This document shows, one piece after another, positions 9,286 to 10,975 of a stretch of 64,000 nucleotides of DNA. Position 1 is the first letter of the stretch; each line of letters starts with the position of its first letter. This DNA is from a virus (Duplodnaviria > Heunggongvirae > Uroviricota > Caudoviricetes), in the IMG/VR virus record IMGVR_UViG_3300009169_000014, positions 108,741 through 172,740 of that record, one strand, 5' to 3'. The translations under genes were made by a program, and so were the position numbers. The notes beneath the pieces are model-generated. The model was not told where the DNA came from. It worked only from the letters and a program-made list of their open reading frames with translations, and did not search any database.

Positions 9286-10284
9286 TTACACCGCGTCTCC
9301 GTCTTCCCACTTCCCAGTTTCGAAGTTGTAGCTAAACGAGGCGAGAGTAGTCAGGTTGAAGGCCGCAGGTTCAGCCTCTAGTGTAGACGCTTCGAACTGG
9401 CTCGTCGCGTGGCTCAGGCCGTTAGACTGATTCGCGCAGAAAGATGCTTGCTCCTTGAAGAGCGAGGCCCTGGAGGTTCCGCCCATGGACGCGGAGCGAG
9501 ACAAGCTGACGGCCAAGTCGTGCGCCGCCTTGTAGACCCCTCGTTTGGTCCCTGCGATGTTCAGGCTCGCGGCGGCGAGGGCGGTTTCTTCGGTGAGCTC
9601 AGTGAATCCCGTTGCCGCGTAGAACGCGGGGGCGCCACTGATCTCTTTTTTGAGATGAGTCCAGTGCCAGGGTTCGTTGACGCTATGTCCTTCGGCGTGG
9701 TCGAAGCCGTAGCCGGCTGCGTGCCCCGGGTTTTGAGGGGTTCCGTCTCCTGCGAGCCAGAGGTACTCGGCCGTGTACTGTGGCGGTTTGGCCATGTACA
9801 TCGCCTTGGTCATCTTGACGTCGATGTCGAGAGCGCGACCAGACTGGTGATTGCTGTAGCCGGGTCGCGCCGCAACACCCAGCTTGTCGGCCACAGCTTT
9901 AACGGACCGCTCCGTGAAGAGCTTTTGCTGCTGCTCCATTGATCGGAAGCCTGACGAGAGCTGCAAGACAATCCCGTCTCTCGCCGCCGCCGCCGCCATC
10001 ATGATGTAGTCGTACGCGGTGTTCTTCTCGATGAGGAGGCGCCCGACAGTGCAACAAGTGATGCTTTGCGACTTTCCGCGGACGTACCCCGTCTGCGCTG
10101 ATTCTTGTAGCTTCGGAAGCGGGATGGGGCCGTTGATCTTTGGCGCGTTCGCTGCGTTGACCGATACGAGTACCGCGGTTTTCTTGTTCTCTGTGACCTG
10201 TTTGACAGAGCTGTAAGTGACCTTCGGATCTGACGAGGTTAGTGTTTCGTCGGCGGTGATTTGGTTCTGCGTCTCATCGGACAT
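9286..10284 (-). CDS. peptidase M15 (VanY/L-Ala-D-Glu peptidase-like) tail-associated lysin (332 aa)
   Basis: Motifs SSGFRSMEQQQ and GYSNHQSGRALDID match the SxHxxGxAxD zinc-binding signature of D,D-/L,D-peptidases (M15). Confidence 0.7.
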   Translation of the reverse strand: MSDETQNQITADETLTSSDPKVTYSSVKQVTENKKTAVLVSVNAANAPKINGPIPLPKLQESAQTGYVRGKSQSITCCTVGRLLIEKNTAYDYIMMAAAAARDGIVLQLSSGFRSMEQQQKLFTERSVKAVADKLGVAARPGYSNHQSGRALDIDVKMTKAMYMAKPPQYTAEYLWLAGDGTPQNPGHAAGYGFDHAEGHSVNEPWHWTHLKKEISGAPAFYAATGFTELTEETALAAASLNIAGTKRGVYKAAHDLAVSLSRSASMGGTSRASLFKEQASFCANQSNGLSHATSQFEASTLEAEPAAFNLTTLASFSYNFETGKWEDGDAV

Positions 10285-10975
10285 GGCTACTCGCCTTCGC
10301 GCGGGTGACAGCTTGGACGATGAGCGTCTTCTGGTAGCTCAACTGCCCCTGCGTGATGCCAAGCTTCTTCATCAATGCGGCGCCTGAGAGGATCGGCTTC
10401 CCTTGGTATCCTGTGGAGTACTCGAAGATGCTTTTCTGGAGCGGGGTTAGGTCGTGATAGATGTAGTCCACCAGGTGATCTTCAGCGTCCTCTATCTCCG
10501 GATGGTCTTCCGACTCGACGAACTCCTTGCGCTGGCTCTGGCGTTGGAACGTCTCAAGTTTTTTGGGTGACCATCCGAGGTGGTCCGCGAGTTCGTCGTT
10601 GGTGGGCTCTCGTCCTTGGCGGTCCCTCAGATCGTTCGACGCCGTGTGGTAGGTGTGGAAGAGCAGGTTCTTTGTCTCAGAGAGTCGCGCGGTATTCTGG
10701 GTGGCGTAAACGACGCGAGAGAGCTTGGGCAGCCGACTGGCGACGTGCGTTGAGAGCGCCGTGCCGAAGTTGGGGTCGTACGATTCGAACGCTTCGACAG
10801 CGAGACGCTTGGCCTCTGCCTCGAGGTAGGAACGAGACATCGATGGCGCCCACTTGTTCACTTCGCGCATAAGGATGGGGTTCATCTGGGTGAGGAGCTT
10901 CTGAAGGTCCCCCGGTGACCTCGTCTTCTTCCATTGACGCCAGAGCTCCGTGTCTGTGGCTTTGAGGGGGTTCAT
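10274..10975 (-). CDS. sigma-70 family RNA polymerase sigma factor (233 aa)
   Basis: Region-2-like EAEAKRLAVEAFESYDPNFGTALSTHVASRLPKLSRVVY resembles IQEGNIGLMKAVEKFDP..GF.FSTYA. Region-4-like LTPLQKSIFEY...LSGAALMKKLGITQGQLSYQKTLIVQAVTRA resembles LSPRERQVL...TLEEIGEELGVSRERVRQIE. Overlaps both neighbours, so it is operonic. Confidence 0.6.
   Translation of the reverse strand: MNPLKATDTELWRQWKKTRSPGDLQKLLTQMNPILMREVNKWAPSMSRSYLEAEAKRLAVEAFESYDPNFGTALSTHVASRLPKLSRVVYATQNTARLSETKNLLFHTYHTASNDLRDRQGREPTNDELADHLGWSPKKLETFQRQSQRKEFVESEDHPEIEDAEDHLVDYIYHDLTPLQKSIFEYSTGYQGKPILSGAALMKKLGITQGQLSYQKTLIVQAVTRAKASSHVR

Follow-up and report, generated by a model that had tools for sequence, protein, structure and literature searches.

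Several phages use sigma factors of their own for the temporal control of transcription, among them T4 (gp55), SPO1 (gp28/gp33-34) and Bacillus phages with SigF/G-like proteins, and the T4 factor is a minimal form reduced to sigma2, which depends on gp33 and the sliding clamp. Such host-directed sigmas are encoded by early or middle genes of phages without an RNA polymerase (RNAP) of their own, not in a baseplate operon, and to our knowledge host core RNAP is the target of all phage sigma-70-family proteins that have been characterised by experiment. The virion RNAP (vRNAP) of N4 and that of crAss-like phages are encoded by structural-module genes, occur in the particles and are thought to serve early transcription. 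We know of no virion RNAP, be it of phiKZ/AR9, N4 or crAss-like phages, that uses a sigma-70-family factor.

In phiKZ and AR9 the vRNAP genes belong to late/structural modules; the enzyme occurs in the particles, and its presumed task is to transcribe early genes after ejection (PMC7598289). Promoter specificity of the phage multisubunit non-virion RNAP is provided by the phage factors gp68 (phiKZ) and gp226 (AR9), and according to a 2020 review the vRNAP of phiKZ-like phages still lacked an identified specificity factor and purification of a vRNAP had yet to be achieved (PMC7598289). Reviews set large phages with their own RNAP and unrelated specificity subunits against those with a sigma factor and a hijacked host enzyme, and report no sigma homologue in RNAP-encoding jumbo phages (PMC7598289, PMC7824862). 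Salmonella phage Arash encodes a protein, Gp10, that has been annotated and mentioned in passing, but never functionally studied (PMC10585845). Here we analyse a homologue of Gp10 encoded in a 64-kb stretch of tailed-phage DNA (the window). Its partner is most likely the phage's own bacterial-type RNAP, and it may travel inside the virion and initiate transcription once the next host is infected.

A three-domain sigma factor in the tail/baseplate operon

A sequence-only reading of the window had proposed a sigma-70-family ORF lying between a hub-like protein and an M15 peptidase and overlapping both, and we verified its coordinates and both overlaps (Table 1). The start codon of the sigma gene shares bases with the stop codon of the hub-like ORF (ATGA), and 11 nt at its 3' end overlap the start of the peptidase ORF. 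Database searches returned 232 homologues of the protein (best E 1e-137), almost all of 227-257 aa, and judged by these the ORF is far beyond a chance ORF. Megablast of the region against cultured phages gave no match, and no second sigma-like ORF was found within the 64-kb window.

Table 1. Features of the window discussed in the text.
Feature	Position	Strand	Basis
Tail/baseplate operon: gp2-like, tape-measure-like, gp6-like, hub, sigma, peptidase, wedge proteins, fibre	410..20076	-	collinear with Arash gp2-gp14 and six IMG/VR relatives
gp25-like baseplate wedge / sheath-initiator protein, 150 aa	8830..9282	-	PHROG 43 'baseplate wedge subunit', E 1.3e-3; weak Pfam Sheath_initiator; Arash gp12 homologue
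VanY/M15 cell-wall peptidase, 332 aa, directly downstream of sigma	9286..10284	-	Pfam VanY PF02557, E 3e-20
Sigma-70-family gene, 233 aa	10274..10975	-	ORF with ATG start, Pfam, family profile, AF2/Foldseek, homologues
Sigma4 domain (predicted), aa 168-233, helix-turn-helix, -35-binding type	10277..10474	-	structure model
Acidic disordered linker, aa 148-167, sequence FVESEDHPEIEDAED	10475..10534	-	pLDDT <50 at aa 151-163; aligns to RpoS 3.2 segment
Sigma3 domain, aa 100-147	10535..10678	-	Pfam PF04539; family-wide motif GR[DE]PT..E[LM]A..L.W
Sigma2-like N-terminal domain, aa 1-96, regions 2.2-2.4, motif YDPN.G.ALST..A.R	10688..10975	-	profile, motifs, model helices H3-96
Hub-like tail protein, 830 aa, directly upstream of sigma	10972..13464	-	Arash gp8 homology
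SNF2-family helicase, 715 aa	41967..44114	-	Pfam SNF2-rel_dom, Helicase_C; Arash gp217 homologue, 39% identity

The window protein is a compact sigma-70-family protein of three domains, sigma2, sigma3 and sigma4. Its family assignment has several supports: Pfam Sigma70_r3 matched aa 111-160 above the gathering score (31.8 against 25.3 bits, E 1.5e-7), which identifies the sigma3 domain and is a match precomputed for nearly all homologues too, and both profile and structure searches led to sigma factors. Regions 2 and 4, which had been described as recognisable, were so by other routes than the suggested Pfam check, region 2 by a family profile and region 4 by structure; Pfam Sigma70_r2 and r4 did not match the window protein, and on Arash Gp10 Sigma70_r2 reached E 0.0036, under the gathering score. 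The family profile (A1), compared with sigma factors in the PDB, matched RpoS, SigA and RpoD (best E 5.4e-8), with its positions 46/55-173 covering their regions 2.2-3.2. Every clade of the family keeps the motifs DP..G..LST and R..Y..QN unchanged, and the conservation shared by all clades falls on the residues of sigma regions 2.2-2.4 and 3.0-3.1. In region 2.3, the family has S-R (or T-R) where sigma70 has W433-W434, as is typical of alternative sigmas.

The AF2 model of the full-length protein (pLDDT 79.5) gave only full-length sigma factors as top Foldseek matches in the PDB, with full-length structural alignments at probability 1.00 that also support the sigma2 assignment. The top matches in BFVD were likewise sigma factors and the BFVD matches include phage sigma-family proteins, at an identity of 12-17% to any solved or viral sigma. 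When aa 162-233 were modelled in isolation (pLDDT 84.9), sigma region 4 structures (SigL, SigA, SigD) made up 49 of the 50 top Foldseek matches in the PDB, with TM 0.6-0.8 and an rmsd of 2-3 Å. A profile of the C-terminal part reached SigF sigma4 in the PDB at E 0.65, which is not significant, and it is the predicted structure that identifies the C-terminal domain as sigma4. In sigma factors, regions 2.1-2.4 comprise a helix for core binding and the part that recognises and melts the -10 element, and the helix-turn-helix of regions 4.1-4.2 contacts both the -35 element and the beta flap. The linker between the two C-terminal domains probably marks the site of the region 3.2 'sigma finger'.

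The hub-like ORF is homologous, at 22% identity (E 7e-9), to the middle portion of Arash gp8, which is annotated 'cell wall hydrolase, structural protein'. The peptidase has detectable similarity in five of the six window-clade relatives, and the remaining one (L009) carries an ORF of similar size at the same position with undetectable similarity. No intergenic gap between 19093 and 410 exceeds 40 nt and a search for minus-strand terminators inside the tail operon found none that was convincing; this tight packing makes it fair to assume that the sigma gene is co-transcribed with structural genes and, taken together with the gene overlaps, almost certain that it shares their late transcript, as had been proposed.

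Conservation of the locus and co-occurrence with a phage RNA polymerase

By homology, the sigma belongs to a large family of tailed phages with genomes of ~170-195 kb. Its placement had been thought unusual, which proved incorrect for this family: the order hub, sigma, wedge is conserved over deep branches, being kept in Arash, in Vibrio phage D69 and in nearly all of 23 IMG/VR loci, and a hub lies upstream of sigma in nearly all loci compared. Sigma is the most conserved gene of this module. Its identity in six relatives is 92, 83, 83, 77, 74 and 65%, against only ~30-75% for the neighbouring tail genes, which we take as selection on sigma. Full-length homology to Arash Gp10 (33% identity over 93% of the query in tblastn, E 2e-23) and the shared location between a hub and a gp25-like wedge place the window protein in a Gp10-like family.

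In each of the nine genomes that could be checked, which represent seven lineages, the sigma gene is accompanied by a phage multisubunit RNAP. These genomes are Arash, the Vibrio phages D69, D148 and D181 and five metagenomic contigs, two of them from the window's clade. Among 50,697 cultured phage records, sigma occurs only in Arash and Vibrio D69/D148/D181, and a full-length RNAP beta-beta'N fusion occurs in exactly the same four. Contigs 3300048835_000830, 3300032516_000003 and 3300044939_000165 carry both sigma and RNAP, and in the window's clade contig 3300045051_000909 has a sigma of 77% identity together with the helicase and both RNAP beta-beta'N and beta'C. On Ga0172381_10000023, which we count with the window's clade and which has 179,282 bp, as has the window-clade contig 3300014204_000001, the portal gene is followed by a 1999-aa RNAP (Pfam Rpb2_6 at 5e-47, Rpb1_1, Rpb1_2) and a 599-aa beta'C (Rpb1_5). 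The RNAP of the window's clade was found by a degenerate DNA scan for the universal beta motif GDK-x5-G-x-KG[VI][VI], with AAG for both lysine codons, and was then confirmed by a clade-specific metagenome scan; Arash/A2-type and L081-type RNAP peptide patterns had no match in window-clade contigs, and a portal-gene scan covered 80 of 283 relatives.

The enzyme comprises a beta-beta'N fusion, encoded beside the portal gene, and a separate beta'C, and the RNAP gene directly follows the portal gene in all loci examined. Two polymerase chains are present and an alpha or omega subunit was not identified. With Rpb2_6 matches of about 1e-47 to 1e-56, the phage RNAP appears near enough to bacterial beta/beta' for a partnership with sigma to be plausible, and the two, which co-occur in genomes and are co-detected in Arash virions, may bind physically. 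The window also encodes an SNF2 helicase, which is probably part of the same transcription machinery: the gene of its Arash homologue adjoins that of beta'C, the homologue itself is an abundant protein of Arash virions, and in many sister clades an SNF2 helicase gene is a neighbour of the RNAP genes. The window helicase has an N-terminal extension of 250 aa, which was considered as a remnant of beta'C and rejected, as it shows no similarity.

This co-occurrence, to which two window-clade contigs contribute, argues against a sigma that acts by binding host core RNAP and steering it towards phage promoters of the late or very late class, in the manner of T4 gp55, SPO1 gp28/gp34 and the sigmas of RNAP-less jumbo phages. 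So do the presence of sigma in Arash virions together with the phage RNAP and the resemblance of that RNAP to bacterial beta/beta', and we regard host redirection as improbable. In its favour, the characterised phage sigma-70-family proteins known to us all act on host core RNAP, and ordinary group-3-like sigma factors of bacteria have this same fold. Moreover, no RNAP gene was seen in the readable ~93 of roughly 190 kb of the window's own genome (window, L157, L082, L158/L159), including the extensions from both window ends; the nearest RNAP-bearing relatives have a sigma 74-77% identical to that of the window. Reviews also describe sigma-encoding jumbo phages as lacking an RNAP of their own (PMC7598289, PMC7824862).

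Presence in Arash virions and proposed timing of action

In purified Arash virions, Gp10 was detected by mass spectrometry with 100% coverage, 24 unique peptides and 467 spectra (PMC10585845). Spectra per residue calculated from these data (PMC10585845) are higher for sigma (2.0), the two RNAP chains (2.3 and 2.0) and the SNF2 helicase (2.4) than for the portal (1.5) and baseplate proteins (0.6-1.5). The virion list holds 116 proteins, among them ribonucleotide reductases and primase, and its authors allow for carry-over of abundant proteins (PMC10585845); packaging is therefore unproven even in Arash.

Since the Arash sigma is abundant in virions alongside the RNAP, packaging for use in the next infection accounts for its late expression better than a feed-forward loop does. 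We lean towards a sigma that is made late for the phage's own RNAP and packaged so that it can serve early transcription when the next host is infected. The protein would be produced late, translationally coupled to the hub and baseplate genes, and would join the SNF2 helicase and the phage RNAP, which is also encoded in a structural module; the resulting complex would be packaged into the virion and enter the next host with the DNA, where sigma2 and sigma4 would recognise phage promoters, so that early transcription could begin without host holoenzyme. For the window's phage we infer packaging from the virion data on the 33%-identical Arash homologue of its sigma. Only one RNAP set is known in Arash, which counts against this explanation where middle and late transcription are concerned.

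The sequence-only reading had envisaged a late-operon sigma that either creates a feed-forward loop for very late genes or redirects host RNAP. The late operon stands, and the phage RNAP co-occurrence and the Arash virions make both of these roles less likely. A feed-forward loop could also run on the phage RNAP, with sigma serving that enzyme inside the infected cell only, at late or very late promoters, and the Arash virion signal being carry-over. It would account just as well for the co-occurrence of sigma and RNAP and for a sigma gene in a late operon, and the long Arash virion list, with its obvious non-structural enzymes and the carry-over raised by its authors, would fit too (PMC10585845). 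We nevertheless consider it rather unlikely, as matching abundances of sigma, RNAP chains and helicase, above those of portal and baseplate proteins, are unusual for contaminants, and an RNAP gene directly after the portal gene is what is expected of a packaged protein. In addition, if the only sigma were made late, another early starter would be needed, and sigma70-type promoters are not enriched.

This last point comes from scans for sigma70-type promoters in the window, which found 1 where 3.2 were expected and 3 where 3.5 were expected, and it hints indirectly at early transcription that is independent of host RNAP. A promoter motif of a non-sigma70 type shared by late and fibre genes had also been suggested, and all attempts to find one were negative. 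Enrichment of k-mers in upstream regions gave no promoter motif, and genome-wide 10-12-mers with one mismatch allowed returned codon-driven repeats only. Footprinting upstream of the tail operon, where only the two closest relatives align, likewise gave no motif. Bipartite motifs (4+5-mers) were sought in 45 upstream regions taken from an extended 83-kb sequence; the best pair was present in 5 of these regions, while the maximum in shuffles was 4-6, and the top pairs contained the ribosome-binding site.

Detection of Gp10 in virions also bears on whether the protein might be a structural virion component, a finding that, together with a lack of DNA or RNAP binding, had been proposed at the outset as grounds to reject a sigma factor. 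Taken literally, the Arash homologue is a virion component, yet sigma function is not thereby refuted. An exapted tail-tip or baseplate component that has kept a sigma-like fold and lost its transcription role would suit a gene located between hub and wedge genes, a homologue present in Arash virions and the failure of Pfam to detect regions 2 and 4 by sequence. It would leave unaccounted for the conservation, in all clades, of precisely the residues of regions 2.2-2.4 and 3.0-3.1, the retained sigma4 helix-turn-helix fold, the phylogenetic tracking of the phage RNAP by sigma and an Arash virion abundance like that of RNAP and unlike that of the baseplate neighbours, and it is very improbable.

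Comparison with known sigma factors and phage polymerases

We advance tentatively that a whole phage family of ~170-195 kb, most of it uncultivated, packages a pre-assembled holoenzyme, composed of a bacterial-type beta-beta' RNAP, the sigma-70-family factor and the SNF2 helicase, which is ejected for host-independent early transcription. If true, sigma-dependent virion RNA polymerases would have their first example here, and the rule that phages have their own multisubunit RNAP or sigma factors, not both, would have a counter-example. The family is widespread and has both, with the sigma gene fixed inside the baseplate operon and the RNAP gene fixed beside the portal gene, and cultured relatives carrying the pair exist in Arash and the Vibrio phages D69/D148/D181. 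Should the sigma work with the phage enzyme, the two would form a minimal sigma-RNAP pair that is tractable in study and would link cellular with phage transcription machineries in evolution. The pair would then also suggest how early promoters are located by a virion RNAP, a problem still unsolved for the vRNAPs of phiKZ-like phages.

Arash Gp10 ('RNA polymerase sigma factor RpoS', WGL32461.1) is alike in length (234 aa), in its place in the tail/baseplate module and in its Pfam Sigma70_r3 match, and the Arash genome has the portal-adjacent beta-beta'N fusion, the beta'C and the SNF2 helicase. The two loci differ in that sigma in Arash is flanked by the small genes gp9 and gp11 and the cell-wall hydrolase is part of the hub, whereas the window has a separate VanY peptidase after sigma. 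Of the two proteins, Gp10 is the one with virion proteomics.

With the group-3 sigmas (FliA/sigma28, SigF/SigB/SigG, WhiG) the window protein shares three domains, the lack of region 1.1 and of a non-conserved insert, and a size of ~230-260 aa; B. subtilis SigD, SigB and WhiG are among its best structural matches, and NCBIfam models of FliA/WhiG align weakly and collinearly over aa 3-172. Membership of the FliA/WhiG (sigma28) subfamily was rejected, with 24 bits against the TIGR02479 cut-off of 189.6, and the likeness is one of architecture only. Against the NCBIfam models the window protein scores far under every curated cut-off, and it differs further in its likely partner, a phage RNAP rather than host core. 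A minimal late sigma of the T4 gp55 type was likewise rejected, given that sigma3 and sigma4 are present.

The proposed role, that of a phage-encoded specificity factor for a phage multisubunit RNAP, would be shared with phiKZ gp68 and AR9 gp226. Those two have no sequence similarity to sigma factors and are part of a non-virion enzyme, whereas the window factor is recognisably of the sigma-70 family. Compared with phiKZ and AR9, the RNAP of the window's family is also much closer to bacterial beta/beta', and sigma and RNAP are both present in Arash virions.

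The sigma gene and its place in the baseplate operon

The sequence-only reading had placed a protein of about 233 aa in the baseplate operon, overlapping both neighbours. The ORF (minus strand, ATG start, 233 aa) lies at the stated position, and the junction sequences bear out the overlaps: the sigma ATG shares ATGA with the TGA stop of the hub-like ORF upstream, and the last 11 nt of the gene lie within the start of the VanY/M15 peptidase ORF downstream. Because all gaps in the minus-strand block running from 20076 to 410 are ≤40 nt past the tape-measure-like gene, genes overlap and no convincing minus-strand terminator was found inside the block, it is reasonable to infer that the sigma gene would be co-transcribed and translationally coupled with the baseplate genes. 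The database holds 232 homologues (best E 1e-137), several labelled 'DNA-directed RNA polymerase specialized sigma subunit' by JGI. Given this number, the best E value and the narrow size range (nearly all 227-257 aa), the ORF is by sequence criteria a real gene, and a chance reading frame is excluded.

Sigma regions 2 and 4 had also been claimed for the protein. Membership of the sigma-70 family stands, and Pfam detects region 3 (Sigma70_r3, 31.8 bits against a gathering score of 25.3), with no match for r2 or r4 on the window protein; region 2 is recovered by profile and region 4 by structure. PHROGs returned 'RNA polymerase sigma factor' (E 4e-4), and the NCBIfam matches to FliA/WhiG, SigB/F/G, RpoD and RpoS were collinear and weak, every one scoring far under its cut-off. 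A 29-member family profile aligned with regions 2.2-3.2 of RpoS, SigA and RpoD chains of solved structure (best E 5.4e-8). In the AlphaFold model (pLDDT 79.5) the protein folds into three helical modules, with an acidic disordered linker at aa 151-163, and all 50 PDB matches listed by Foldseek were full-length sigma factors aligned over the whole protein, including Bacillus subtilis SigD, SigA and SigB, RpoS, mycobacterial and Thermus SigA, and WhiG; the best viral structural matches were phage sigma factors at 12-17% identity. Region 4 is not demonstrable by sequence (Pfam and C-terminal profile searches), and when the C-terminal 72 residues were modelled separately (pLDDT 84.9), 49 of the top 50 matches were sigma region 4 (-35-binding) domains with TM 0.6-0.8. 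Sequence and models together identify a genuine sigma-70-family member with sigma2, sigma3 and sigma4 and a group-3-like architecture, too divergent in sequence for any curated subfamily. Its baseplate surroundings would suit an exapted structural protein, a reading that we consider very improbable; the residues invariant across all family clades map to regions 2.2-2.4 (DP..G..LST; R..Y..QN) and 3.0-3.1 (GR[DE]PT..E[LM]A..L.W).

The placement had been described as unusual, and it proved to be no anomaly, since the order hub-sigma-wedge is kept across deep clades. No close DNA-level relatives were found among cultured phages, and by protein the cultured relatives are only three Vibrio phages (D69, D148 and D181) and Salmonella phage Arash, whose gp10 was deposited as a sigma factor; in both groups the sigma gene lies in the tail module, 3' of the hub gene and 5' of the wedge genes. 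Gene order in the tail module of the window matches that of Arash gp2-gp14, of which gp8 is a virion protein labelled 'cell wall hydrolase/structural protein'. The order holds in six of six IMG/VR contigs of the window clade (five of them 168-194 kb), with similarity to the intervening VanY peptidase detectable in five, and in a wider scan nearly all of 23 sigma loci from at least five deep clades had the same context. Within the window clade the sigma gene is the best conserved of its module (92/83/83/77/74/65% identity), and because these values exceed those of its neighbours (about 30-75%), they suggest that a conserved partner constrains the protein strongly. One locus from a low-GC relative, L298 (IMGVR_UViG_3300018080_000492, GC 0.37), has the order hub-portal-sigma-wedge and so unites an 'RNAP/portal' and a 'sigma/baseplate' neighbourhood that are elsewhere apart; its 16.7 kb showed no RNAP.

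Features of the window and of related loci
Feature	Coordinates	Strand	Remarks
VanY/M15 peptidase	9286-10284	-	332 aa; Pfam PF02557, E 3e-20
Sigma factor	10274-10975	-	233 aa
Hub-like protein	10972-13464	-	830 aa; homologous to central part of Arash gp8
tmRNA	28394-28761	+	predicted by ARAGORN; tag ADQDSKANSDVELPAWMIGASAPEFRAAA
Nine tRNAs	28935-30457 and 50729-51477		predicted by ARAGORN
Vault-protein-like ORF	30791-33475	+	894 aa; Pfam MVP_shoulder 1e-22, Vault_3, Vault repeat
ORF with shared N-terminus	37565-38308	-	247 aa
HAD/PNKP-type phosphatase	40791-41288	-	in helicase operon
SNF2 helicase, RNAP-linked	41967-44114	-
Helicase N-terminal extension	43335-44114	-	about 250 aa; HEMGH motif
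von Willebrand factor A-domain protein	49355-50416	+
rIIA-like protein	54477-56615	+	PHROG 612, E 5e-93
Late block, part within the window	57768-63995		block headed by the 2048-aa protein of L082
2048-aa protein	L082: 3854-10000		just past right end of window
rIIB-like gene	L082: 15609-16781		PF26926; beside rIIA-like gene
Hub-portal-sigma-wedge	L298: 5010-11498
RNAP fusion with InPase insert	L379: 6431-12430		1999 aa; PF18823 at aa 985-1107, E 1.7e-29
RNAP fragment and beta'C	3300045051_000909: 170.6-181.5 kb		locus L255

Phage RNA polymerases and the Arash virion

Arash encodes phage beta and beta' subunits, both of which were detected with Gp10 in purified virions (PMC10585845). In our analysis the Arash portal gene is followed by gp206 (1525 aa), in which beta is fused to an N-terminal beta' half (Pfam Rpb2_6 2.8e-56, Rpb2_3, Rpb1_1, Rpb1_2). 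The other half of beta', the C-terminal one, is gp216 (606 aa; Rpb1_5), and after it comes the SNF2 helicase gp217. Of 50,697 cultured phage records, just the four that carry the sigma gave a match over the whole length of the fusion. The metagenomic RNAP superfamily is very large (hundreds of loci, portal followed by RNAP in every locus examined) and contains separate beta, beta-beta'N fusions or single chains of 2100-2650 aa, the last in sister clades (L307, L315, L317, L328; P0241-P0360; 1830 protein matches at E ≤ 1e-10).

Counted only over genomes where the scans recovered both loci, sigma and RNAP share a contig in 3300048835_000830 (L288 with L213/L350), 3300032516_000003 (L290 with L197) and 3300044939_000165 (L291 with L253). 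In the window clade, 3300045051_000909 (194,266 bp) carries a sigma gene 77% identical to the window's (L007/L277), the helicase (L302) and, one after the other, a beta-beta'N fusion (its C-terminal 810 aa) and a beta'C of 599 aa. Locus L379 (Ga0172381_10000023) has a portal gene (604 aa), a 1999-aa RNAP (Rpb2_6 4.8e-47, Rpb1_1, Rpb1_2) and a 599-aa beta'C (Rpb1_5 1.5e-18); both it and 3300014204_000001, a window-clade contig whose sigma is 74% identical to the window's, are exactly 179,282 bp long and are thus probably one scaffold. The sequence-only reading had the factor either driving a feed-forward loop for very late genes or redirecting host RNAP. Redirection is what all characterised phage sigmas do, and no RNAP gene was found in the approximately 93 of roughly 190 kb read of this genome type (window, L157, L082, L158/L159), the portal region lying outside. 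Set beside the co-occurrence in its own clade, redirection appears unlikely.

Arash Gp10 was recovered at 100% coverage with 24 unique peptides and 467 spectra (PMC10585845). Published spectral counts divided by protein length, a crude abundance measure from a single noisy dataset on a distant homologue (33% identical to the window sigma), gave 2.00 spectra per residue for sigma, 2.31 for beta-beta'N (Gp206), 2.00 for beta'C (Gp216) and 2.43 for the helicase (Gp217), with 1.51 for the portal (Gp204), 0.6-1.5 for baseplate and hub proteins (Gp6-Gp14) and 4.3 for the major capsid protein (Gp226). Because the four transcription proteins match, the values would be compatible with their packaging as a complex in about equal molar amounts. 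A sigma with the same phage RNAP partner might instead act only late inside the cell, its detection in virions being carry-over, which the Arash authors raise for a list of 116 proteins including ribonucleotide reductases and primase (PMC10585845); set against the matching abundances, we regard this as possible, though doubtful.

Further features of the window and its relatives

The N-terminal extension of the window's helicase is absent from Arash gp217, has a zinc-metalloprotease-like HExxH motif and gave no Pfam match; a sister-clade helicase (L307, 753 aa) has a similar extension. The inorganic pyrophosphatase (InPase) domain inserted in the L379 RNAP might remove pyrophosphate from RNA synthesis, and some single-chain RNAPs have intein/LAGLIDADG (PF14528, PF14890) or Peptidase_M23 (PF01551) matches. 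Over its first 33 residues the 247-aa ORF shares 55-70% identity with the N-terminal ends of ORFs lying a few kb 3' of RNAP (L086, L142, L154, L189); the similarity stops there, and the segment may be a common N-terminal signal, e.g., for packaging or processing.

The Major Vault Protein matches are strong; vault proteins are usually regarded as eukaryotic, and a phage homologue is unexpected. One 73-nt tRNA with anticodon TCA, called 'SeC' by ARAGORN, could be a UGA suppressor; the window's ORFs read normally with table 11. The flanking locus L082 is 99-100% identical to the rIIA-like part of the window, and its 2048-aa protein, without a Pfam match, is reminiscent in size of the 2548-aa Arash virion protein gp229.

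Proposed mechanism and known systems

Our favoured proposal, which we judge somewhat more likely than not, starts from a sigma2-sigma3-sigma4 protein coupled to the late baseplate operon, with a conserved position, RNAP co-occurrence and a homologue in virions; the gene for the putative RNAP partner is also located in a structural module. In the manner of bacterial sigmas, this one would contact the clamp helices of phage beta' and the flap of beta; the holoenzyme and SNF2 helicase would be packaged into the virion, and the ejected holoenzyme would recognise phage promoters and begin early transcription without host RNAP. Such a mechanism would account for a transcription factor among virion genes. 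The window shows no enrichment of sigma70-type promoters, which is weakly consistent with host-independent initiation, and a shared non-sigma70 promoter motif, which the sequence-only reading had suggested looking for, was not found in several motif searches, including upstream regions.

The gene family itself is already known, having been annotated as sigma in Arash and by JGI, and the Arash authors gave its virion presence one sentence. New here are the findings that the family is broad, that its place in the baseplate operon is fixed, that sigma and RNAP co-occur over deep clades and that the virion abundances match; for the window phage itself, the significance is one that we infer. RNAP-encoding jumbo phages have been described without sigma homologues, and sigma-encoding ones without RNAP (PMC7598289, PMC7824862). 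The non-virion RNAPs of phiKZ and AR9 rely on gp68 and gp226, neither of which resembles sigma in sequence, and their virion RNAPs have no known specificity factor (PMC7598289). In the present family, a factor recognisable as sigma-70-like occurs together with a phage RNAP much nearer to bacterial beta/beta'.
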